Positions 4,435 through 62,355 of a DNA stretch of 64,000 nt are shown here, piece after piece. The stretch is from Nitrospinales bacterium (GTDB lineage Bacteria > Nitrospinota > Nitrospinia > Nitrospinales > VA-1). Under the pieces are notes generated by a model, which was not told the DNA's origin, did not search any database, and saw only the letters and a program-made list of their open reading frames with translations. Every line of letters starts with the position of its first letter. The stretch's first letter is position 1. Made by a program: the position numbers and the translations under genes. The DNA is taken from the NCBI GenBank assembly GCA_965262115.1, contig OZ253496.1, forward strand, positions 2,080,001 through 2,144,000, given 5' to 3'.

Positions 4435-4616
4435 AACGTAAATCCTTTAAAAAACAATCTCTATTTTTCCTTGATATTGATTAGATTCAATTCTACCAGA
4501 AAAGATTCTCCAATCAACCGGGCCCACTAGCGTGGGAAGCAAAGGGCGCAACTCTTTCTGGCGAACGAAAATTATCTCGGCTTTAGGGGCCATTGCCCAG
4601 TTGCCCCCTCGCCAGA

Positions 4617-4744
4617 GAGACCTTTGCATAAGTCGAAAAATCGAAGAATCGAGATGCTTCGACAAGCTCAGCATGACAATATTGGGCCATTTTGTCATTC
4701 TGAGGAACAAGGTGACGAAGAATCTCGGGTTATGCAAAGCTCTC
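4617..4744. mobile_element. MITE family B copy (128 bp)
   Basis: TIRs GAGACCTTTGCATAA / TTATGCAAAGCTCTC; exact 9-bp TSD CTCGCCAGA (4608..4616, 4745..4753). Confidence 0.9.
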
Positions 4745-4759
4745 CTCGCCAGAGGGCGG

Positions 4760-5935
4760 CTATGCCGAGAATGCCTGTTCGAATCCGGCGATGGAACCTT
4801 CGATGACCGAATCGGGCAGGCAATAGGAAATACGGAAATACCCCGGCAGGCCAAATCCTCTGCCTGGCACCACCAGCACCTTTTGTTCAGCCAGCTTTTT
4901 AACGAACTCCACCTCATCTTCCAGCGGGGATTTCGGGAAAAAATAAAATGCCCCTTGCGGTTTCACCACCTGATAGCCAATTCGGGTCAGCTCCTTATAT
5001 AAGTAATCGCGTTTTCGGCGATATTGTTCCACATCCACCGTCACTCCCTGCACCTGTTTCACCACGCGCTGGATGAGCGCCGGAGCGTTGACGAATCCCA
5101 ACACCCGGTTGCAGAAGATCAGTCCTGCCATGAGCTCTCCGGCGGACTCACATTGTGGATGCACCACCACAAAACCAATACGCTCGCCGGGCAGCGCGAT
5201 GTCCTTCGAATGGGAAGTGATATAAATACTGTTTTCGTAAAACTCCATGATGTTTGGCGCTTCGACCCCATCAAAGGTGATCTTTTTATACGGGTCGTCC
5301 GAGATCAGATAAACGGCCTTGCTAGGCCTGTCCGAATGCGCTTTTAAAATGTTTGCCAACTCCTGCAACTCTTCACGCGAATAAACCACCCCGGTCGGGT
5401 TGTTTGGGGAGTTGATGATGACGGCTTTAGTTCTTTCGTTGAGCGCATTTTTTAAAGCCGGGAAATCGAGGTGGAAATCTTCCAAGGTCGGAACCGCCAC
5501 CGCCTTGCCGCCGTGGTTGTCAGCATAAAATAGGTACTCAACAAAGTAAGGCGTGAAGATGATGACCTCATCATCCGGATCGAGCAGAGTCTTTAAAGTG
5601 ATGTTGAGTCCGCCCGCCGCGCCACACACCATGACCAAATCATTATCTGAGAGTTCCACCTTACATTCGGAGGACAGAGACCCGGCAATCGCCGCGCGCA
5701 CATCAGCAAATCCGGCATTTGGCATATAGCGGTGCAAGCCGGGAGTCTCATCCTGCGCGCTTTCAACCAGCGCTTTGCGGACTTCCTGCGGCGGTTCCAT
5801 CACCGGGTTGCCCAAGGAAAGGTCGAACACGTTATCCTCACCGAATTCCTTTTTCAGCCGGATGCCTTCCTCAAACATTTTACGAATCCAGGAAGACTTC
5901 TCCATGAACCCTATAACTTTTTGCGATATCGCCAT
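4760..5935 (-). CDS. PLP-dependent class I aminotransferase (aspartate aminotransferase-like)
   Basis: SLGNP, NSPNNPTG, SDDPY, SHSKDIALPGERIG (PLP lysine), FRISYC. Confidence 0.9.
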   Translation of the reverse strand: MAISQKVIGFMEKSSWIRKMFEEGIRLKKEFGEDNVFDLSLGNPVMEPPQEVRKALVESAQDETPGLHRYMPNAGFADVRAAIAGSLSSECKVELSDNDLVMVCGAAGGLNITLKTLLDPDDEVIIFTPYFVEYLFYADNHGGKAVAVPTLEDFHLDFPALKNALNERTKAVIINSPNNPTGVVYSREELQELANILKAHSDRPSKAVYLISDDPYKKITFDGVEAPNIMEFYENSIYITSHSKDIALPGERIGFVVVHPQCESAGELMAGLIFCNRVLGFVNAPALIQRVVKQVQGVTVDVEQYRRKRDYLYKELTRIGYQVVKPQGAFYFFPKSPLEDEVEFVKKLAEQKVLVVPGRGFGLPGYFRISYCLPDSVIEGSIAGFEQAFSA

Positions 5936-6861: not shown

Positions 6862-9434
6862 GCTTTCTGCTTTATTTTAAAGACCTGTTCACCGCGCTCA
6901 TCCTGCGTCCCTTATTGCGCGACCCATTTCGTACCGCCATCACCATCCTTGGCGTGGCAGTCGGGGTCGCCGTGTTTCTCAGCATTCGTCTCGCCAACCA
7001 GCAAACCATGATGTCGTTCACCGAAAGCGTGAACCTGGTATTAGGTAGAGCCGATGCAGTCATCCGGGTTGAGGGTATGGACTTTAATGAATCGGTCTTC
7101 GAAAAGCTCCACGCTCTCCGTAAGGAGATCAAGGCCTACCCGGTGATTGAGGGATATGGCGTCGAGTCCACCAGCGACGAGGTGGTAGAAATTATAGGCA
7201 CCGACTTATTACAAGATAGTGGCATCCGCGACTTTTCCATCAAAACCGTGGAAGAAGGTCTGAAAGGATTAATTCCACTCATTACCGATCCGGCTGGAAT
7301 CATTCTTCCGGAAAAATTCGTGCCGGGCACCCGTTTTGCCCCCGGCGACACCATTGAGTTCCTGATAAAAGGAAAAATAAAAACTCTCAACGTCAACGCG
7401 ATATTGGAAGACGAGGGAATCGCCAAAGTCTTGAACGGCAATTTCGCCCTGATGGATATCGCGGCGGCGCAAAACGTATTTGACAAAGTGGGCCGACTGG
7501 ACCGCATCGACATTCAGTTTCTAAACTCCGCTGACTTCGAATCCATGCAGGAAAAAATAGCCTCCCTGCTTCCCGGAAACATGAAGGTCGAACGCCCACA
7601 ACGCAAGAACCGTCAGGTCGGGAAAATGTTGCAGGCGTTTCAATATAACCTGACCGCCTTGAGTTTCGTGGCCCTGCTGGTCGCCCTTTACCTGATCTAT
7701 AACATGATCGCTCTTTCGGTGGTGCGGCGAAGGGTAGAAATCGGCACACTGCGCGCGATAGGCGCCACCCCTACTTTGATCGCCCTGATTTTTTTTCTGG
7801 AGGCCGGGATCATCGGCGCGGTCGGCTCTTTGCTCGGAATCGGGTTGGGTTATTATTTCGCGCAGTTTTCTCTTGATGCTGTTTCACTCACCGTCAACAA
7901 CCTTTACGCGCCGAGTTATGTCACGGAAGTGGATTTCCAATGGAGCCAGATGGGCCCCTATTTCATTTTAGGTGTTGCACTTAGTTTTATATCTGCCCTC
8001 ATCCCCGCCTGGGATGCGGCCACCACCCCGCCCACCTCGGTCATGCGTCGAGGCAGTTATGACCTGAAACTGTTTCGCGGAAGCCGTGGGCTGAACCTGA
8101 CCGCCCTGATGGTAGTTCTGCTTGCTGCACTTTGTGCGCAACTGCCGCCAATCAACCACTTCCCTTATTTCGGATTCTTTTCGGTATTTTTAATCATTCT
8201 CGGCCTTTCCTTATTGTCTCCAGCGGTTTTGCTGTGGACCCGTGACCGACTGCATTTCTTTTGCAAAAAACACTTTGGCGGAGAAGGCCTGCTCGCCTGC
8301 ATGAACCTGTCGCAAAATGTAGGACGCAACGCCCTTGCGGTTTCGTCGCTGGCCATCGCTTTCATGATGGTCATCAGCATGTCGATCATGGTGCACAGCT
8401 TCCGCCAGACCGTGATCGTCTGGATCGACCAGACATTGCGGGCCGACCTGTTTGTACGCGTAGCCGGGGGACGTGATATCGATTACCAGCATACCCTTCC
8501 CTCCGAATCGGTGGAGAAACTGAAATCCTTAAAAGGCATTGCCGCGGTCGATCAGTTCCGCGCCCTCGACATCACTTATAACGATCTTCCGGTAGTGCTG
8601 GCCACCGGTGATTTTTCCGTGCTGTCCCAGTACGGCAATCTGATAATCAAGTCCGGTCCTCCCGCCCGGGAACTCGACCGCGTCATGGTCGGCCAGAATC
8701 GGGCCATGGTTTCCGAAGCGTTTTCTCTCAAGCACAAGAAGAATGTCGGAGATAGTATAGAGTTGCAGACACCCAGCGGTCCGGCCCGGATGGAAATCGC
8801 CGCCATCTATTTCGATTATTCCCGCGAACGCGGTTACATCATCCTCGACCGCACCACGTTTTTAAACTATTACAAGGAAACTGAGATCAACAGCTTTGTT
8901 ATTTACCTTGAAGATAAAACCCGGCTAGAGTCCGTACGGAAAGAAGTCCTTAAAACTTTAAAAGATCATCGGCTCATCATCCGTTCCAATTCCGAATTGA
9001 AACATCAGGTGCTCGAAGTGTTCGATAAAACTTTCGCCATCACTTACTCGCTGGAAATCATTGCCATACTGGTGGCAGTGCTGGGCCTATTCAACACCCT
9101 GGTTTCACTGATTCTAGAACGCAAACGGGAAATAGGAATCCTCAGGTTCCTCGGCGCGTTCACAGGACAAGTCAAGCGTATGGTGTTGATCGAAGCAGGA
9201 ATACTGGGACTGATCGGCTCAGTAATGGGTTTTGTCGCGGGCGTGGTTGTTTCCTATATCCTGATCTTCGTGATCAACAAACAATCTTTCGGCTGGACCA
9301 TTCAGGTGCATTTCCCCATCCTGTTCATTCTGGTCATGATAACCACGTTCTGGGGAATTTCTTTACTGTCCGGACTTTACCCGGCAAGGCTGGCAGAAAA
9401 ACTCAATCCCAAAGAAGCCGTGCGAGTCGAATAA
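6858..9434 (+). CDS. ABC transporter permease with two FtsX/MacB-type repeats
   Basis: Two RR.EIG.LR..GA motifs, multiple TM segments, overlaps ATPase stop (GTGA). Confidence 0.9.
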   Translation: MSFLLYFKDLFTALILRPLLRDPFRTAITILGVAVGVAVFLSIRLANQQTMMSFTESVNLVLGRADAVIRVEGMDFNESVFEKLHALRKEIKAYPVIEGYGVESTSDEVVEIIGTDLLQDSGIRDFSIKTVEEGLKGLIPLITDPAGIILPEKFVPGTRFAPGDTIEFLIKGKIKTLNVNAILEDEGIAKVLNGNFALMDIAAAQNVFDKVGRLDRIDIQFLNSADFESMQEKIASLLPGNMKVERPQRKNRQVGKMLQAFQYNLTALSFVALLVALYLIYNMIALSVVRRRVEIGTLRAIGATPTLIALIFFLEAGIIGAVGSLLGIGLGYYFAQFSLDAVSLTVNNLYAPSYVTEVDFQWSQMGPYFILGVALSFISALIPAWDAATTPPTSVMRRGSYDLKLFRGSRGLNLTALMVVLLAALCAQLPPINHFPYFGFFSVFLIILGLSLLSPAVLLWTRDRLHFFCKKHFGGEGLLACMNLSQNVGRNALAVSSLAIAFMMVISMSIMVHSFRQTVIVWIDQTLRADLFVRVAGGRDIDYQHTLPSESVEKLKSLKGIAAVDQFRALDITYNDLPVVLATGDFSVLSQYGNLIIKSGPPARELDRVMVGQNRAMVSEAFSLKHKKNVGDSIELQTPSGPARMEIAAIYFDYSRERGYIILDRTTFLNYYKETEINSFVIYLEDKTRLESVRKEVLKTLKDHRLIIRSNSELKHQVLEVFDKTFAITYSLEIIAILVAVLGLFNTLVSLILERKREIGILRFLGAFTGQVKRMVLIEAGILGLIGSVMGFVAGVVVSYILIFVINKQSFGWTIQVHFPILFILVMITTFWGISLLSGLYPARLAEKLNPKEAVRVE

Positions 9435-9723
9435 CCACTCGGCGTGGGGCCAACGAGCAAACATTCTATAGCTACCCACACTTTCAGAGCGCATTTAACC
9501 GCTATTACCAGTTACCTGCGGAGGTTCTCCGCCCACTCGGCGTGGGGCCAACGAGCAAACATTCTATAGCTACCCACACTTTCAGAGCGCATTTAACCGC
9601 TATTGCCAGTTACCTGCGGAGGTTCTCCGCCCACTCGGCGTGGGGCCAGCGTGCAATCGCTTTTTCTGGCAGGCAAACGTGTTCTAGGCTCAACAAGCTA
9701 TTGTTAATTGCCTCCACGGCAAG
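9435..9723 (+). repeat. Tandem family A units: two 98-bp copies (one mismatch) plus a third divergent unit
   Basis: CCACTCGGCGTGGGGCCA at 9435, 9533, 9631; units 1 and 2 differ only at 9507/9605. Confidence 0.9.
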
Positions 9724-9852
9724 GAGAGCTTTGCATAACCCGAGATTCTTCATCGCGTACGCTCTTCAGAATGACAAAATGGCCCAGTATTGTCATGCTG
9801 AGCTTGTCGAAGCATCTCGATTCTTCGATTTTTTGACTTACGCAAAGGTCTC
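9724..9852. mobile_element. MITE family B copy (129 bp)
   Basis: TIRs GAGAGCTTTGCATAA / TTACGCAAAGGTCTC; exact 9-bp TSD CACGGCAAG (9715..9723, 9853..9861). Confidence 0.9.
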
Positions 9853-9957
9853 CACGGCAAGTGGCCAGCGTGACGCTGGACCCGGTGAGCAATGTCTTTA
9901 TTTTGCCGTCAATCGGACTCTTGGCTCTATGGTCTATTGCCAACTGGCCCCACGCCG

Positions 9958-34264: not shown

Positions 34265-34277
34265 TCCTTTAGCGGGG

Positions 34278-34406
34278 GAGACCTTTGCATAACCCAATAT
34301 TCTTCGTTGCAATAGCTCCTCAGAATGACAAAATAGCCTTTTATTGTCATGCTGAGCTTGTCGAAGCATCTCGCTTTTCTGCTTTATAGACTTACGCAAA
34401 GGTCTC
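34278..34406. mobile_element. MITE family B copy (129 bp)
   Basis: TIRs GAGACCTTTGCATAA / TTACGCAAAGGTCTC; exact 9-bp TSD TTAGCGGGG (34269..34277, 34407..34415). Confidence 0.9.
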
Positions 34407-34499
34407 TTAGCGGGGGGGGGGGCATTAGCAACGACTCTTCAAGCCGAGGTGATCGCTTGTTTGCCAGCAAAAGCTATTACCCCTTGTATGTTGTTCATA

Positions 34500-34710
34500 A
34501 GGGGAATTTGTAGTAGTTGTACCTGTGAGCCCTGTGGGAAGCCGGTTTTGTGTTTTCCACAAGCTCCCAGGATTTGATTCAGGGCACAATAGATCGTTTA
34601 CCCCTTGGGCTTTTAAGCCCGTCCCGAAGCGCAGATCGTTGTGTCCTATTTTGATTAACCCGAACAGTTGCCTGGGCCACTGAGCCCGCATCGGCAAGGC
34701 TGGGAGACCA
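34500..34710 (+). ncRNA. IS110 bridge RNA (predicted)
   Basis: 5' hairpin 34522..34571; target loop with TTACCCCT (34598..34605) and GTCCCGAAG (34621..34629); donor loop with ACAGTTGC (34664..34671) and GCAAG (34694..34698); RNA ends approximate. Confidence 0.85.
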
Positions 34711-34714
34711 AATT

Positions 34715-35665
34715 ATGAATCAGAAACCCCATTTTATTGGCATCGATATTTCTAAACTCCATCTGGATGTTGCTGACAGCATGACTCAAGAAACCTGGCA
34801 AACCGCTAACAATGAAGAAGGGATTGCTGGTTTGGTCGAGAGTTTATCCGCCTTAAATCCTCCATTGATCGTTTTGGAAGCCACAGGCGGCTTAGAGATC
34901 CCGTTGGCTTCGGCCCTGGTTGCGGGTCGACTGCCAGTAGCCGTGGTCAACCCGCGACAAGTTCGTGATTTTGCCAAAGCCACCGGGAAACTGGCAAAAA
35001 CCGATGTCATTGATTCTCTTGTGCTGGCCCATTTTGCCAAGGCCGTACGTCCTGAGGTCAGGAAAATCAAAGACGAAGAATCTCTTGAACTCTCAGCTCT
35101 GGTGACACGCCGTCGCCAGTTGATCGAGATGCTGACCAAAGAAAAAACCCGTCTAAAACAAGCTCCAAAATGGATATGTAAAGACATTAAGGAGCATATC
35201 GAATCTCTTAAAAAACGCTTGCGAAAAATCGATGGCGACCTTTCCAGAACCATCAAAAACAGTTCTGCCTGGCGTGAGCACGACCAGATTATACAAAGTG
35301 TTCCCGGTGCCGGTCCCGTTCTGGCTGTCAACCTCTTGGCCGGGGTTCCGGAACTTGGAGTTCTTAATCAGAAGCAAATCGCCGCCCTCATCGGTCTCGC
35401 TCCCCTCAATCGGGACAGCGGAAAGTTCCGGGGCCGCCGGTGTATCTGGGGCGGCCGCGCCAATGTGCGTGCCGCTTTATACATGGCCGCCGTCACTGCC
35501 ATGCAGCATAATCCCGTGATTCGTACCTTTTACACACGCCTCATCGAAAAGGGCAAACCCTTTAAAGTTGCCATTACCGCATGCATGAGAAAGTTATTAA
35601 CGATCATCAATACCATGATCAAAACAAAAACACTCTGGAATGAAAATCTCATTACCAGCACTTGA
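34715..35665 (+). CDS. IS110-family recombinase/transposase
   Basis: DEDD residues in IGID, LEATG, KTD..D; SG motif in RDSGK; KVAITACMRKL. Confidence 0.95.
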   Translation: MNQKPHFIGIDISKLHLDVADSMTQETWQTANNEEGIAGLVESLSALNPPLIVLEATGGLEIPLASALVAGRLPVAVVNPRQVRDFAKATGKLAKTDVIDSLVLAHFAKAVRPEVRKIKDEESLELSALVTRRRQLIEMLTKEKTRLKQAPKWICKDIKEHIESLKKRLRKIDGDLSRTIKNSSAWREHDQIIQSVPGAGPVLAVNLLAGVPELGVLNQKQIAALIGLAPLNRDSGKFRGRRCIWGGRANVRAALYMAAVTAMQHNPVIRTFYTRLIEKGKPFKVAITACMRKLLTIINTMIKTKTLWNENLITST

Positions 35666-35682
35666 CATTTAACACAGTTGCT

Positions 35683-35794
35683 TCGGGGCACGAGATACCC
35701 GTGCCGGGCATGAAGGCAAAGGTAAAATATCACATACCCGTGCCGGGCATGAATTTTAAGGAAGAGGACATCACAGCTATGAAAGAATATCACG
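35683..35794 (+). repeat. Family C cluster: remainder of the IS110-interrupted copy with two nested copies
   Basis: Outer copy 34478..34484 + 35683..35695 + 35776..35794 = 39 nt; inner copies 35696..35734 (39 nt) and 35735..35775 (41 nt). Confidence 0.8.
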
Positions 35795-35885
35795 GCCACC
35801 GGCGGCTCGTCGGCCACGCCTGGTGGGTTGACGGAGCCGGGTTAGGGCGTTATGATTCTTTTTCATTAAATTTCTGGAGCAAAGA

Positions 35886-37007
35886 ATGGGGTACAAAGAA
35901 TCTTATATGCCTGAACCCTTGGATGAGGGCCAAAAGAAGAAGAAAAAAGAAATTTTAAATACCCGGATTGCTCCGGTCGACTTTGAAAATATTAAGGATG
36001 TGGGTGATCTGGTGGAGTCGTTTCAATCGGCTTCCATTCAGGCCCGAAACCTCGGGCAATGCGCCAAAATATTTGGGGAAATGCTTCAAGATGAGGAAAA
36101 ACCCACTATTATCCTGGGGCTGGCGGGTCCCCTGATTGCGGCGGGACTGAGAAAAGTCCTGCGTGATATGGTGCATTACAATATGGTGGATGTGATCGTT
36201 TCCACCGGGGCGATTTTATATCAGGATTATTACAACGCCCTCGGCGGGGGTCATTATTATGGCAGCCCAAATGCTGATGATACCAAGCTCAGGGAACTCT
36301 TCATCAACCGGATTTATGACACCTATGTTGATGATGAATTATTTGTCGAGGACGACACCCTGGTGGGAAGGTTCGCCGATACTTTAGAACCCGGAAACTA
36401 TTCCAGCAGGGACTTCATCTCCAGACTATCAGAAACCATCGATGATGATGAATCCATTCTGGTCACGGCCCGGAAAAACAATATTCCGATTTTTTGCCCG
36501 GCCATCAACGACTCCAGCTTAGGGATAGGGTTGACAGAGCATTATCACTCGGCTCGCAAAGAGGGGCGCACTCCTATCACCATCGATTCCATTCGCGACA
36601 ATTACGAACTCACTCAGATCGTGGTGAACTCGACACGCACGGCGGCTTTTTATGTTGCGGGCGGAGTGCCTAAAAACTATGTCAACGATTCGGTGGTCAT
36701 GGCCTATATTTTTGGTAAGGATACCGGTGGTCACAAATATGCCCTGCAAGTGACCACGGACTCGCCGCATTGGGGCGGGTTGAGCGGCAGCACGTTAGCC
36801 GAGGCGCAGTCGTGGGGGAAAGTCAATAAAGAGGCGACACATAGCATGGCGTTTGTCGAGCCCAGCGTTTCGCTTCCGTTGATTTATGGTTATGCGTTTC
36901 AAAAAGGTCTTTATAAAGGGCGCCCACGAATGGACTTCAAATGGGAGGGTGATACCCTGAAAAAAATGGCCCGCCGCCAGCGTGACGCTGGACTCAATGA
37001 GCAATAA
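35886..37007 (+). CDS. Deoxyhypusine synthase-like protein (DHS family)
   Basis: STGA, RIYD, PAINDSSLG, GGVPKN, GGLSGSTLAEAQSWGK. Confidence 0.9.
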   Translation: MGYKESYMPEPLDEGQKKKKKEILNTRIAPVDFENIKDVGDLVESFQSASIQARNLGQCAKIFGEMLQDEEKPTIILGLAGPLIAAGLRKVLRDMVHYNMVDVIVSTGAILYQDYYNALGGGHYYGSPNADDTKLRELFINRIYDTYVDDELFVEDDTLVGRFADTLEPGNYSSRDFISRLSETIDDDESILVTARKNNIPIFCPAINDSSLGIGLTEHYHSARKEGRTPITIDSIRDNYELTQIVVNSTRTAAFYVAGGVPKNYVNDSVVMAYIFGKDTGGHKYALQVTTDSPHWGGLSGSTLAEAQSWGKVNKEATHSMAFVEPSVSLPLIYGYAFQKGLYKGRPRMDFKWEGDTLKKMARRQRDAGLNEQ

Positions 37008-40040: not shown

Positions 40041-42304
40041 ATGGAATACATAGCTCATGCGAAGGAAAATTTATCCGCAGAAAAAGGGTTTGACATACAC
40101 CTGCTGGAAGATCATCTGCGGAAGGTCGCAAAAAAAGCACAAGAGTTTGCGGGAGCATTTGGTGCGGGTGACTGGGCTTATCCGGCAGGACTGTGGCATG
40201 ATTTAGGCAAGTATCGCGCAGCTTTTCAGGCGTACATACAACGCGGCACTGGCATAAACCCGGACGCGCACATAGAGAAAGACAGCGACCCGAGAACCAA
40301 CCATGCGTCTTCCGGTGCTATCTATGCACTTAAAAAATTGGGTGAAGAAGTTGGATTGCCGCTGGCATATATGATTGCCGGGCATCACGCTGGATTACCT
40401 GATTATGAAGGTGGTGGCGAAGCCAGGGGTGTTCCGCTTCGGGAAGTTCTTGAGCGCGATAAATCACTTTTAGAAGAAGCCCTTCGTGAGCAAATTCCAG
40501 AAGATATATTTTCTGGAAACAGACCTGAAACGAATTGCCCCGGCGGTCCCAGCGGGGCGCATCTTTGGATTCGCATGTTGTTTTCCAGTTTGGTGGATGC
40601 AGACTTTCTGGACACAGAGTCTTTTATATCACCGCACCTTTCCAAGCAACGATCTGTAGCCATTCCACTTGATAAATTGCTGGATGCTTTCAATGAAGGA
40701 ATGACGACAAAGGTGCAAAACTATGAGCCGTCACCAGTCAACAAAATTCGAGCGGAATTCTTATCTCAATGTCGGGAAGCCGCAACAAAGGCACCGGGCA
40801 TTTTCACCTTGACTGTTCCCACCGGCGGCGGCAAAACCCTGTCGAGTTTGGCTTTTGCGTTGGAGCATGCTATCCGGCACAAAAAGAGGCGCATCATTTA
40901 CGCTATTCCCTACACCAGCATCATTGAACAAACAGCAAAAGAATTTAAGAAAATTGTTGCGCCATTGGGTGATTCAATCCTGGAGCATCACAGCAATGTC
41001 GAGCCAGATAAAGAATCCCAGGAAAATGCCAAATCTCGACTTGCCACCGAAAACTGGAACGCTCCCATTGTGGTTACTACCACGGTACAATTGTTCTAAT
41101 CATTATTCGCTGCCCGTACAAGCCGTTGTCGAAAACTACACAACATAGCCAATAGCGTTGTCGTTCTTGATGAGGTTCAGTTGTTACCGTTGCAACACCT
41201 TGCTCCCATTCGAAAAATCATGGCACTCTTGGCAAAGCACTACGGGGTAACTTTTATTCTTTCGACAGCAACACCGACTGGATTAAACGCACAAAACAAC
41301 CCGTTTGGGAAAAAATTACTTGAGGGATTAAGCAGCACGGAAATTGTTCGCAATCCCGGAAAATACTACACTCAACTTGAACGGGTTCGCTATAAGCTAC
41401 CAGAAAACTTTCAGACCCCCCGTAGCTGGGTTGAGATAGCTAAAGAGCTAGAGCTATATAAATATGATTCGGTTCTTGTCATCGTCAACAAGCGGCAAGA
41501 TGCAAAGGACCTGTTTGATTTGATGCCCACAGGAACTTACCACCTCTCGGCCCTTATGTGTCCTGCGCATCGCTCTTGCGTGATTAAGGAAATAAAGAGA
41601 GGCTCAAGGACTGTAAGCCAACCAGAGTGATTAGCACACAGTTGGTTGAGGCAGGTGTTGATTTAGATTTTTCGGTTGTTTATCGAGCTATAGCTGGGAT
41701 GGATTCAATTGTTCAGGCTGGCGGTCGATGTAATCGTGAAGGCAAACTTGGTGCCGGAAAGGGGAAGGGAAATGTTGTGGTGTTCGTGCCACCTTCAACC
41801 CCACCCAAAGGCGCAATCGGAACGGCTATCGCGTCCTGCATATCAACGCTTAGTTGTCTTAACGATCGGGAATCTATTGATAGCCCGGAAATATTTGAAT
41901 GTTACTTTAACCATTTGTTCAACCAGGTAGAAGCCGACGCCGCTAACATGTGCGATTTGTTGGAACGCGACGCGGGACGCTTACAGATTCAATTTCGCAC
42001 AGCCGCTCTTAAATTCAGGATGATTGACGATGCTAATACCCATACGATATATGTGAAATACGGGGAAGAGGTTGACGGCTGGTTGCAGGAATTGAGGTTT
42101 CACCCGAACAGGGAGCTATTAAGAAAACCCCAGCGTTACAGCGTGACAGTATATAATCACCAGTTTAATGCGATGCTCGCCAGGGGCTATATCGAAGAGG
42201 TATCATCAGGGTTTTACGCTCAATGTAATAGCGAAATTTACGATGACAAACTCGGCTTGCTGGTGGGTGAAATAGAACTCACACCCGGCAATTCTGTTCT
42301 GTGA
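40041..42304 (+). pseudogene. cas3: Cas3 HD nuclease-helicase, disrupted
   Basis: HDLGK, TVPTGGGKT, LDEVQ, STQLVEAGVD, QAGGRCNREG; in-frame TAA 41097..41099 and frameshift at ~41595. Confidence 0.92.
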
Positions 42305-50361: not shown

Positions 50362-50403
50362 AAAACGTTAATTCCTTTTTTATAAGGTTGGCTCCCCTTA
50401 GCA

Positions 50404-50626
50404 GAGAGCTTTGCATAAGTCGATAAAACAGAAAAGCGAGATTCTTCACGGAGCCTGTGCTGAGCTTGTCGAAGCATTCAGAATGACAGCAACAAGATTC
50501 TTCACTGCGTTCAGAATGACAATACTGGGCCATTTTGTCATTCTGAGGAACAAGGTGACAAAGACATGATATTTTTCTTTAAACTTCGTGCCCCGCAGGG
50601 GTAATCTTGGGTTATGCAAAGCTCTT
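50404..50626. mobile_element. Expanded MITE family B copy with family C insertion (50565..50603)
   Basis: Left TIR GAGAGCTTTGCATAA, degenerate right TIR, imperfect TSD (CCCTTAGCA vs TCCTTAACA); extra internal hairpins; 39-nt insert relative to the 4617 copy. Confidence 0.8.
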
Positions 50627-50699
50627 CCTTAACAGGGGAGGTAGCTAGCAAGAACCTTTTAAGCCGAGATAACTCTTTGCTTACCAGCAAAAGTGATTG

Positions 50700-52112
50700 C
50701 TATCTGCCCCCACGGCGAGTGGGGAAGGGCTTTAAAAAAAACAGGGATAAGAATACCAGAAAAGCGTAGCCAGCGATGACTTTAAAAAACATCTGTGGGG
50801 TCATGAAACTGAACAGGGTGAGAAAGATAACCGCTCCGACACTGCCATAGGCCCCTGCCAGGCCGGCCAGCTTCCCGGTGAGGGGTTTGGATATCTGTGG
50901 AATCACTGCAAAACAGGCGCCGTTACCTGCTTTTAAGAAGATGGATCCCACTACCGCAAGGGTGATGGCACTGGAAAGCTGCCAACTGGAGTCAATCTCT
51001 CCCATTAACCAGTGACTCACCATTCCCCCAAGGACCATGATGAAAAGAGTTCTGCGGCGACCAAACCGGTCAGAAATCCAACCTCCTCCGGGCCGAGCCA
51101 CCAGGTTCATGAAAGCATAACTGGCCCCCAGCATTCCCGCTAATCCCACAGAAAGTGAAAACGTTGTTTCCATAAACTGCGGGAACATCGAAACGACCGC
51201 CAACTCGGAACCGAATGTAAGAGAATAGACCATGCTCAATATAGCGATCTGGCTGAACAAATATTTTTCTTCTTCAGGCACGGGGTGTTGCAGTCGAGGA
51301 ATGTTGACTTTCCAGCATCGCAATACGTTCAGGAAAAAAAGCAATACCATGCCAAGAATCAAAACCAGGGCAAGGGAGTTGGAAATCAAACCAAACGGAT
51401 GCCCGGAAAGCTTCCAGATGAATAAAGACAGGGTTCCATAAATGGGTAAGAGGAGAAGGATTTGCAGGATCAGATCCCGGCGCGAAGTGACTTCAATCAC
51501 GCCATGCAGGTCGACCAGGAAATCCTGACCTTTCCCTGGAGCATCAGGGCAAAATCGATAATAAACCCCCGCCCAGATAAGACAGGAAAGTCCCGAAAGA
51601 CCAGTAGCCACCCGCCACCCGGACTCTTCAGGCAAGAGAAAGGCAATAAGAGGAAGGGAAAACGCCGCGAACGCCGAACCGAAGTTGCCCCAACCTGCGT
51701 AAATACCCTGCGCCGTTCCCATCTTTTCCGGCGGGAACCACTCAGCGACCATTTTTATACCCACCACGAATCCGCCACCGACGATCCCCATCAACAAGCG
51801 GGTGACCAGCAATGTTTTGAAGTCCTGCGACATGGCGAATGCAAAACATACCAGTGCGGAAAAGATCAATAGTCCGCTGAACACTTTTTGCGGGCCGTGT
51901 TTATCAACCCAGAAACCGATAACGATTCTGGCGGGAATGGTCAAAACCACATTGCAGACCATCAAGATACTGATCTCGGCGGAAGACAGGTTCAAAGCGC
52001 GCATGATCGTGGTGTTGAAGGGCGCCATGTTAAACCAGGCCACAAAGGTCAGAAAAAACGCGATCCAGGTCAGGTGCAGGGTGTTCCATTGGATTTTGCT
52101 GAAACCTAACAT
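50700..52112 (-). CDS. NarK/NRT2-family nitrate/nitrite MFS transporter
   Basis: TIPARI, GIYAGWGNFG nitrate signature, FGSELAVVS, ARPGGGWISDRFG. Confidence 0.88.
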   Translation of the reverse strand: MLGFSKIQWNTLHLTWIAFFLTFVAWFNMAPFNTTIMRALNLSSAEISILMVCNVVLTIPARIVIGFWVDKHGPQKVFSGLLIFSALVCFAFAMSQDFKTLLVTRLLMGIVGGGFVVGIKMVAEWFPPEKMGTAQGIYAGWGNFGSAFAAFSLPLIAFLLPEESGWRVATGLSGLSCLIWAGVYYRFCPDAPGKGQDFLVDLHGVIEVTSRRDLILQILLLLPIYGTLSLFIWKLSGHPFGLISNSLALVLILGMVLLFFLNVLRCWKVNIPRLQHPVPEEEKYLFSQIAILSMVYSLTFGSELAVVSMFPQFMETTFSLSVGLAGMLGASYAFMNLVARPGGGWISDRFGRRRTLFIMVLGGMVSHWLMGEIDSSWQLSSAITLAVVGSIFLKAGNGACFAVIPQISKPLTGKLAGLAGAYGSVGAVIFLTLFSFMTPQMFFKVIAGYAFLVFLSLFFLKPFPTRRGGR

Positions 52113-56497: not shown

Positions 56498-56665
56498 GAG
56501 ACCTTTGCATAACCCCGAGATTCTTCGTCACGTTGTTCCTCAGAATGACAAAACAGCCCTTTATTGTCATGCTGAGCTAGTGATACTCGACCTTTGCCTT
56601 CTTGCCCCGGAGGGGTATGTCGAAGCATCTCGCTTTTCTGCTTTATCGACTTACGCAAAGCTCTC
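56498..56665. mobile_element. MITE family B copy with family C insertion (56579..56617)
   Basis: TIRs GAGACCTTTGCATAA / TTACGCAAAGCTCTC; exact 9-bp TSD TATAAAACA; 168 bp = 129 + 39. Confidence 0.9.
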
Positions 56666-56699
56666 TATAAAACAGGGGCTCTTTCGGAAAAAAGCCTGG

Positions 56700-60399: not shown

Positions 60400-60476
60400 C
60401 CGCGTCCACTCGGCGTGGGGCTAGTGTAATAAGCCCGATGCTTGTCTCAATAATTCCTCTCCCCTTGAGGGAGAGG

Positions 60477-60856
60477 ATGAAGGTGAGGGGGAATAAAAAA
60501 TCTCTTCCAAATTTTCTGCAAGAAAACTCCGAAACAACTCCACCGATGCAGAAATAAAGCTATGGTCTGCACTTAGGTCTGCACTTAAAAACCGCCAACT
60601 GGCTGATTTCAAGTTTCGCCGTCAAGCACCCGTAGGAAAATACATTGTAGATTTCTTGTGCCATGAAAAATGTTTGATCGTTGAAGTCGATGGTGGCCAG
60701 CATATGGAAGCATCGATAGCCGATGATCAGCGTACCGCTTGGTTGCAGTCACAAGGATATCAAGTTATTCGATTTTGGAATGATCAAGTCTTGAAAGAAA
60801 CTGATGCGGTTCTTGAAGAGATACTGAGGTGCCTGAGCCAGGAAAGCCAGCGGTGA
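60477..60856 (+). pseudogene. DUF559/Vsr-like endonuclease, frameshifted near the start
   Basis: ARKLR.NST.AE..LW, FRRQ.P.GKYIVDF, EVDGGQH, VIRFWN; ATG 60477 is out of frame across the A-run at 60495; 12-bp in-frame duplication GGTCTGCACTTA. Confidence 0.8.
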
Positions 60857-61092
60857 AAATATTTGAATCCCCCTCATCCCAGCCTTCTCCCTCTAGGGGA
60901 GAAGGAGAAGAATCCACAAAGGAAATTGATTCAAAATTAATAATTCCTCTCTCCTTGAGGGAGAGGATAAAGGTGAGGGGGGCTAAGAAATATTCCTTAT
61001 TTTCCAATGGGTTGTATCGAAATGTGGGCGACATAAAAGTCCCGGCTGACAACTCTTCTTTTGTAAGAATTGAATCGCTCGGAGGGAGCATT

Positions 61093-61404
61093 ATGTCTGA
61101 TAATTTAGGAATCAACGAATTGAGGGTGCTATCCACTTTGATGGGAAAAGAAAAATATGGTCTCGAAATCATCCAGTTCGTTAAAGATGAAACCGGTAAG
61201 GAACTCTCCTTGGGCGGACTCTATACAACATTGCATCGGTTGGAAAAGAAAGGTTATGTCAAGGGCCGTCATGGAGAAGCCACTGCTGAACGTGGCGGCA
61301 ACCGTCGGAAATATTACAAGCTCACCGGCACCGGGCAAAAGGTTCTCGCCGATGCCCGCCAATCACTTTCACCTTTATGGGAGTTGGGGGTGCAGGGTGC
61401 TTGA
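61093..61404 (+). CDS. PadR-family transcriptional regulator
   Basis: YGLEI, GGLYTTLHRLEKKG, RGG.RRKYY.LT..G; GGAGG RBS. Confidence 0.9.
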   Translation: MSDNLGINELRVLSTLMGKEKYGLEIIQFVKDETGKELSLGGLYTTLHRLEKKGYVKGRHGEATAERGGNRRKYYKLTGTGQKVLADARQSLSPLWELGVQGA

Positions 61405-61542
61405 TAAAAAAAATTTGGTGATTAAACTTGAACCCGCTATCGATACAATTCTGGAATAATGTCCGCTTGGCTTATGTTTCATATCGTGATGAATTGATAA
61501 GAGCTGGATTATAACAACGATTAACAAAAAAGAGATCGAAAA

Positions 61543-62166
61543 ATGAAATCGCTAAAAGAAATGCTGCACAAAAAACCATATTTGGCAGTTGATGCAATGA
61601 TTCGGGGGCTGGATAACCCGCCGGAAAACTTTGTGGTTAATATGGATTCGTTCGGTGGGGTAATAACTGGAGTGTGTGAGGGTGGCGCAGCAACTCTGGC
61701 ACTGCAGAAACTCAGCAATCATGAGTTCACACCAGAGGAAATTTATGATACTAGAGTAAGGTCGGAGGCTCTGGGTTTCGATTACTCTGAAGTATTTAAA
61801 TTTGAAACTGCAATGGATTCATTAAGGATGGGAGACATAGGAAACCTCGCTGATTTTTGCAATATTAGAAGGACAGATATGCCAGCCCCATATCCTGATT
61901 TAGATGTTTTAGATACCAAGAAAAACTTTTTAAAAAAAATATCTGCCGAAAAAATAATTACGTTTTGCGGTTACTTTTTTCCCAAGAAATTCAGGGAAGA
62001 GGCAAAGGGCGATATCTTTGAAACTCGCCATGAAATGATTGAAAATGATTGCTCGAAAATAGCAATCTTTTGTGTGACAGCATTTAAAATCTTTTCTTTG
62101 ATCTTGGGTTCGTTGCGTATTCGCCTGAGCGATCTGGTTAAAACAGAAAATGAGATGAATAAGTAG
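61543..62166 (+). CDS. Hypothetical protein downstream of PadR
   Basis: 207-aa AT-rich ORF; C-terminal FFPKKFREE..GD..E segment. Confidence 0.6.
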   Translation: MKSLKEMLHKKPYLAVDAMIRGLDNPPENFVVNMDSFGGVITGVCEGGAATLALQKLSNHEFTPEEIYDTRVRSEALGFDYSEVFKFETAMDSLRMGDIGNLADFCNIRRTDMPAPYPDLDVLDTKKNFLKKISAEKIITFCGYFFPKKFREEAKGDIFETRHEMIENDCSKIAIFCVTAFKIFSLILGSLRIRLSDLVKTENEMNK

Positions 62167-62355
62167 GGGATTTCAGTTAAATCACCCTCACCCCAGCCCT
62201 CTCCCCTCAAGGGCGAGGGGGAACCCCACATATAGTAAAATCCCTTCTCCCCTGGAGGGAGAAGGTTAGGATGAGGGGGGTATATAAAGACTTTGCTCAC
62301 TGGCCCCACGCCAAGTGGACTGTGGTTAAGTTTGGGACTTTGGTATATAATTCCC

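Follow-up and report, generated by a model that had tools for sequence, protein, structure and literature searches.

A predicted left-end bridge RNA likely guides an IS621-type IS110 element to the hairpin end of a ~40-nt mobile repeat in a Nitrospinales genome

The locus described here raises the question of what brings an IS110 insertion sequence to one and the same position of a short, dispersed hairpin repeat. The window, that is, the whole stretch of 64,000 nucleotides analyzed from contig OZ253496.1 of a Nitrospinales bacterium (genome G000), carries one copy of this element, an intact IS110 insertion sequence that belongs to the IS621 type in each feature that could be tested. Very probably, a predicted bridge RNA encoded in its left end guides the recombinase to the hairpin end, TACCC-CT-TCGGG, of a ~40-nt mobile repeat. 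We base this reading on sequence and comparison, which bear on the element boundaries, the single CT core of the empty site, the catalytic residues, a two-loop RNA fold, a 5+2+5 covariation between guides and flanks, and the occupation of one repeat allele.

The preliminary description had delimited the element by a CT dinucleotide at each end, and this holds throughout the genome: the same CT marks the breakpoint of the 26 left ends and the 26 right ends identified in G000, and in the relative G013 (L142) the orthologous bcp–dhs interval is a repeat array in which the target contains one CT and the insertion sequence is absent. Because the same interval of the relative G007 has neither repeat nor insertion sequence, the repeat arrived first and the insertion sequence second. 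A single CT is also found in 7 empty copies of an IS3-family element (see below), indicative of scarless insertion at a short shared core without further duplication. The motifs named in the preliminary description were all recovered at the positions listed in Table 1. The recombinase scores over the cut-off in profile searches with both PF01548 (N-terminal DEDD RuvC-like domain) and PF02371 (C-terminal domain with the catalytic serine), and it aligns with IS621 (8WT6, phmmer E = 4e-30) and ISCro4 (9T56, E = 7e-33), the only solved structures related to it by sequence; its residues D11, E55, D97, D100, and S235 are aligned with the catalytic residues of these two enzymes. The nearest named relatives are Nitrospina/Nitrospinaceae records, and a tblastn search of G000 found no other IS110 family. 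The long non-coding left end (232 nt) and short right end (17 nt) are those of the IS621 type; membership in the IS1111 group, with a guide RNA in a long right end, was rejected since the right end is 17 nt and the RNA lies in the left end.

Table 1 Features of the element, its predicted bridge RNA, and its target (positions in the window).
Feature	Position	Strand	Basis or remark
IS110 element	34483..35682	+	1200 bp including both CT cores; genome-wide breakpoints, empty orthologous site in G013
Left target arm TACCC (host DNA)	34478..34482	+	first 5 bases of the ~40-nt repeat; 22/26 left junctions
Left CT core and right-donor arm TGTAT	34483..34489	+	sequence, also in relatives
Predicted -10 box TATGTT	34487..34492	+	17 nt from -35 once the ends are joined; consensus match only
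Target-binding loop domain, predicted bridge RNA	34581..34647	+	outer stem 34581-34595 with 34634-34647
Left target guide TTTACCCCT	34597..34605	+	covarying part 34599-34603, plus core
Inner stem-loop of target-binding loop	34607..34620	+	single-sequence fold, 44-sequence alignment, RNAalifold
Right target guide CCCGAAG	34623..34629	+	5 arm and 2 core bases; A34627 faces the variable repeat-loop base
Predicted handshake guide CG, target loop	34630..34631	+	complementary to TG before the donor core, one G.T
Donor-binding loop domain	34659..34704	+	donor variants, handshake pairs, stems
Left donor guide ACAGTTGC	34664-34671	+	
Inner stem, donor-binding loop	34675-34687	+	
Right donor guide ATCGGCAAG	34690-34698	+	
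Donor-loop handshake guide	34699-34700	+	
Bridge recombinase gene, 316 aa	34715..35665	+	residues D11, E55, D97, D100, S235
Predicted -35 box TTGACA	35662..35667	+	overlaps the stop codon; kept in relatives
Left-donor arm ACAGTTG and right CT core	35674..35682	+	sequence, relatives
Right target arm TCGGG and rest of repeat head (host DNA)	35683..35695	+	23/26 right junctions
Two further ~40-nt repeat copies (39 and 41 nt), GTGCC-type hairpin allele	35696..35775	+	nested behind the target copy
Motif TTACCCCT	34477 and 34598		
Motif GTCCCGAAG	34621		first two bases are scaffold
Motif AGGGCACAAT/GTTGTGTCCT	34581/34638		closing pair
Motif GGGCTT/AAGCCC	34607/34615		stem
Motif ACAGTTGC	34664 and 35674		
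Motif GCAAG	34694		

The IS621 bridge RNA architecture proposed for the left end is borne out by comparative folding. A single-sequence fold is weak and only suggestive (z -1.8), but when 44 left ends of relatives are aligned, 90% of the cells of the four-helix structure are paired, as against 33–48% in slid controls, and 17 of 28 pairs show changes on both sides, a value reached in 0 of 500 shuffles, although kinship among the 44 sequences inflates these controls. Both-side changes occur in 10 of the 14 pairs of the outer stem of the target loop, and the two loops with their conserved closing stems were recovered unaided by RNAalifold from the same alignment. The donor-binding loop is likewise tied to the ends of the element: in relatives, the left donor guide tracks the donor variants ACAG/ACGG/ACAATCG/ACAGCTG, and the right donor guide fits the discontiguous 9-on-7 pattern described for IS621 (PMC11208160). 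In 37 of 38 sets, the first handshake base of the donor loop forms a pair with position 7 of the left target (31 G-C, 4 U-A, 2 G.T), as expected from the pairing of this base with the target (PMC11208158); the handshake guide of the target loop was placed by analogy with the same work, its donor base being invariant in the set. An Rfam match to sX15 was ignored, being on the minus strand and below threshold (36 bits vs 55).

How many bases of the target are read was estimated from the covariation of guides and flanks. Ends and flanks were taken from 110 loci, the left guide being extracted by alignment column, and yielded 32 distinct guide sets with a right flank and 51 for the left guide; L050, L104, and L108, which have gaps, and L016, a tandem locus, were excluded, and loci with no detectable right end contributed no right target. 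The right guide matches its flank at positions 1–7 with frequencies of 0.89, 0.92, 0.87, 0.80, 0.80, 0.20, and 0.25 (shuffled, 0.30, 0.29, 0.26, 0.37, 0.34, 0.12, and 0.25), and the left guide with 0.15, 0.41, 0.64, 0.78, 0.79, 0.83, and 0.92 (shuffled, 0.23, 0.31, 0.36, 0.31, 0.34, 0.34, and 0.62). Judged by right positions 1–5 and left positions 3–7, the footprint is about 5+CT+5; the shuffle p-values overstate its significance because the relatives are kin. The claim that the guides match donor and target is thus supported, but that of an unusually long, 9-nt right target guide has to be withdrawn: G34621, the ninth base in the GTCCCGAAG reading, is invariant in 53 of 53 guide sets and belongs to the scaffold, and positions 6 and 7 do not covary, so that neither the 9-nt length nor its G.T pair is supported. 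The guide is 7 nt with its core, a length already published; some orthologues naturally have longer right guides, the one tested being of 7 bp (PMC11208160), and a predicted 9-bp right guide has been listed (10.64898/2026.08.14.744561). Pairing of base 34606, which follows the left guide, with the guide letter or the first right-target base, suggested by two variant copies, was dropped as the 44 sequences gave no pattern. Sister IS110 elements of the same order and of Dehalococcoidia (L004, L006, L007-L010, L012, and L039-L046) are directed by matching guides to other hairpin repeats, AATCCCC-CT-CACCC and GTCATT-CT-GAGCG. A first metagenome pattern scan gave 0 matches, and a later one 30 loci, 6 with this guide domain and 24 attributable to chance; the 3 viral loci from the pattern scan were not relevant.

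Referring to the mechanism of IS621, the element would circularize at its CT core, whereupon the joined ends would form a TTGACA-17-TATGTT promoter producing the RNA; the donor loop would grip ACAGTTG-CT-TGTAT, the target loop would open the repeat, and the handshake bases would drive strand exchange with no target duplication. Activity of the predicted junction promoter is inferred from that of the IS621 model (PMC11208160). The circle joint is not listed in the assembled contigs of the sequencing runs, and such contigs drop rare forms.

The junctions in G000 agree with the predicted guides. Of the 24 matches exceeding 1000 bases, 22 belong to the main type (98–100% identical, one cut at its 5' end) and two are variants at 87% identity, both broken; 15 of the main-type copies encode the whole protein and the other 7 share a 10-bp deletion. 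As to the suggestion that all other genomic copies share the target, the 26 right ends continue with TCGGG in 23 cases, GCGGG in 2, and CGGGG in 1 (a base missing), giving N-CGGG in 25 of 26, and all of them run into a repeat-like head; the 26 left ends are preceded by TACCC (22), ACCCC (3), or GTGTC (1), and the two bases to the left of TACCC vary freely. The multiplicity is not an assembly artefact, as the body of the insertion sequence is ~20-fold deeper than its flank in run X1 (301 vs 13), although such depths are not copy numbers. Two copies have aberrant left junctions. One (L168, G000:C1 about 2034330) has lost its first ~115 bases and is joined to DNA of its own left guide at an 11-bp direct repeat, a junction also present in run X3 that may reflect self-targeting or slippage; in the other (L167, G000:C1 2144617-2145980), a whole copy comes after left-end bases 1–165, the two being fused at a CT within the outer stem of the RNA, with neither arm matching a guide.

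The 12-mer TACCC-CT-TCGGG occurs at 28 of 287,816 CT sites in G000, so that the occupied junctions exceed chance. All 28 perfect empty 12-mers and every occupied site are repeat heads, and the CT core lies at the stem-loop junction of the repeat hairpin, the variable base being the middle of the triloop. These facts would also suit a recombinase that reads the target hairpin itself, guide pairing being insufficient, as in the sequence-structure dual match of ISPpu10, and hairpin gating in an IS110 element has been reported (10.64898/2026.03.19.712850). We regard such a double requirement as rather unlikely here: G000 cannot separate guide from hairpin, since perfect sites outside repeats are absent from it, but in the relatives G016 and L209, which have nearly the same guide, the sites are mostly not repeat heads.

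Guidance by the RNA would account, in addition, for a preference at the level of a single letter. The empty loop alleles in G000 number 41 A, 35 G, 30 C, and 28 T, and the main-type right ends are found in the T allele in 23 of 23 cases, while the 106 A-, C-, and G-allele sites stay empty; counted as 9 independent clusters, the T junctions differ from the 106 non-T sites with a Fisher p of 2e-6. In the two variant copies, the guide reads CCCGCAG (A34627 to C) and the element is located in a G allele, although this amounts to one independent right junction, with 227 shared bases, in two broken copies (L165, L166). The shared flank of these copies ends in the head of another repeat, and their depth in run X3 is about single-copy. 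All four guide letters occur among relatives: L200 has a G letter and lies in a C-allele repeat, and G letters occur with T sites, by wobble, in G013, L209, and 3 of 5 cases in G016, whose right flanks are T, T, T, C, and G (C match 1/5, G mismatch 1/5). L226 has a U letter, which would read A, yet lies at a T site, and the 19 differing right flanks of G015 are 17 T and 2 C, the guide being absent from its assembly. A34627 would sense the unconstrained base in the middle of the triloop, each letter reaching its own share of the repeats, but L226 and the mixed flanks of G016 imply that discrimination is not strict in every lineage, and with wobble and two outright mismatches the letter series is suggestive rather than clean. 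Three IS3 copies with a G-to-T change in the right target arm (G000:C1 411.5k, 603.9k, and 1658.4k) carry the IS110 in 0 of 3 cases vs 10 of 14 with an intact site, these copies not being independent.

The target had been taken for a mobile micro-element, and this is supported. The repeat is a high-copy short hairpin inserting as a unit, with 311 heads in G000, 262 of them followed by the tail, and 0 in a reversed control. At the orfA/orfB junction, the 41 bases of the repeat and no others are missing from related IS3 elements of other genomes, revealing an exact 41-nt insertion; another hairpin repeat is interrupted by the ~40-nt repeat in 2 of its copies and uninterrupted in 56; and the repeat is missing from the orthologous site of G007, which has none of the array behind the target that G013 shares with the window. 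In contrast to REP/REPIN elements with a RAYT, a profile search of G000 (94% complete) with the Y1 (HUH) transposase profile PF01797 found no hit, the control giving signals in 6 of 14 genomes. Given this, and since both the IS110 and the repeat insert without target duplication and ISPpu9 moves a small passenger module (PMC12288879), one might suppose that the repeat, too, is mobilized by the IS110 recombinase, which would then be the missing enzyme. We find this scarcely credible, as the repeat ends are unlike the donor ACAGTTG-CT-TGTAT, the repeat sites have no common CT core, and the repeats abound in members of the genus where no full element was found (80 T-allele sites in G007). Other dispersed hairpin repeat families, often nested, lie at 34265-34420, 4586-4760, 9430-9890, 50400-50720, 56500-56670, and 60450-62320 of the window, and the bcp–dhs interval holds differing hairpin repeats in each of 22 relatives. 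Three consecutive open reading frames at 40041-42304 (+) resemble, as judged from their translations, a fragmented CRISPR Cas3-type HD/helicase gene.

Part of the flank uniformity has another origin. A stretch of 914 bases is common to ten of the left ends, and one of 374 bases to 7 of the right ends; both belong to an IS3-family element, which occurs in 17 near-identical copies, all with the 41-nt repeat and 7 of them without the IS110 (e.g., G000:C1 695240-696529; L169:188-1101); having ends and ORFs of their own and IS110-free copies, these stretches were dismissed as IS110 cargo. All 7 copies with the 10-bp deletion touch IS3, vs 4 of 15 intact copies, which suggests that the deletion copies spread as passengers. 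A 3-bp duplication is preserved at two composite loci, whereas 12 of 14 IS3 end pairs do not in cis and several match in trans, so flanks have been swapped by recombination or assembly, and because of this exchange left and right junctions are not always pairable. The IS110 copy number is therefore likely to stem partly from passive copying within the repeat-carrying IS3 and from recombination between copies. That the uniform flanks are due solely to multiplication of a single insertion, through IS3 transposition, recombination, or assembly, is nevertheless very improbable: the flanks still comprise 9 independent clusters on the right and 18 distinct sequences on the left, G015 has its 19 differing right flanks, and IS3 is not needed to explain the covariation in other phyla. 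As a full account it is refuted, since beyond the repeat the flanks are unrelated; it holds for a subset of copies. With respect to the IS3 itself, the repeat insert makes orfB inaccessible to a -1 frameshift at the A6G run, and still the element has multiplied. A copy of window positions 35683-36062 (380 bases), including the start of a deoxyhypusine-synthase-like gene, is present in one IS3::IS110 locus (L169, G000:C1 1419192-1419571), where it ends at a 10-bp microhomology with the IS3 3-bp duplication intact.

As to selection of the guide for this repeat, a guide that was simply inherited and meets the repeat as a by-product is possible, though doubtful: the 5+2+5 footprint is clade-wide and not fitted to the end of the repeat, and G016, whose guide differs in one letter, has 0 exact T-allele sites and no more than 9 repeat-like heads, and of its 5 right flanks about 4 are atypical of repeat bodies. 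On the other hand, L200 and L226 (66% and 74% protein identity), distant members of the same guide lineage, lie in repeats, as do the G013 copy and most of the 19 G015 right ends, and variation in the guide is greatest at the position opposite the free loop base. Tentatively, the element may even live as an RNA-guided hyperparasite on an orphan mobile element of 40 nt, a relation in which sister lineages have tuned one guide letter to share the four loop alleles and, via the IS3-borne repeat, broken IS110s have multiplied as third-layer passengers.

The element is worth comparing with known systems. Like the bridge recombinases IS621 of E. coli and ISCro4/IS622 (PMC11208160, PMC11208158, 10.1101/2025.05.14.653916; for further mechanism, see also PMC13626964 and 10.64898/2026.08.31.748434), it has a DEDD and Ser recombinase, a long left end with a two-loop RNA, a CT core, an ACAG..CT-TGTAT-type donor, a 9-on-7 right donor guide, handshake bases, and a target in a dispersed hairpin repeat; a junction promoter like theirs is predicted. 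It differs from them in its distant protein, and from IS621 in its footprint (5+2+5 vs 7+2+2) and in its target, a ~40-nt repeat in a genome in which no RAYT was found. Many copies at one position and in one orientation of a host hairpin repeat are likewise known for ISPpu9, ISPpu10, ISPa11, and ISRm19 (PMC1525189, PMC12288879, 10.64898/2026.03.19.712850); here, in distinction from these REP-targeting elements, the core is situated at the stem-loop junction, with one base of the guide opposite the free base of the loop. RNA-guided insertion into other mobile DNA is shared with the IS1111-group elements IS4321/IS5075 (Tn21 ends) and ISKpn4/ISPst6 (attC), in which, however, the RNA lies in the right end and the inverted repeats are sub-terminal (PMC11187229). 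The proposal of a new natural bridge recombinase with a mobile target therefore stands as a new example, but its novelty was overstated, since targeting of REP hairpins, attC, and Tn21 ends has been published. The literature matches listed, among them the best 12 of 573, in which Nitrospina is not mentioned, contained no description of this element, a weak negative; the target tables of PMC11208160 and bioRxiv supplements may list it or its clade.

As the mechanism has already been published, what the element mainly adds is a new, well-documented bridge recombinase whose sequence is remote from that of IS621. The significance of the element lies in an unusually complete natural record of specificity, namely a natural test of single-base discrimination in which one allele is occupied, three are empty, and a sister copy is switched by one letter. 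The clade, with guides reading 5+2+5 bases, offers a testable substrate set for whether target hairpins gate insertion, and the three nesting layers (IS110 in repeat in IS3) bear on the spread of IS110 copies. If the hyperparasite reading is true, these lineages would provide, for bridge recombinases, a natural series of specificities differing by single bases, combined with a 5+2+5 footprint that is symmetric.
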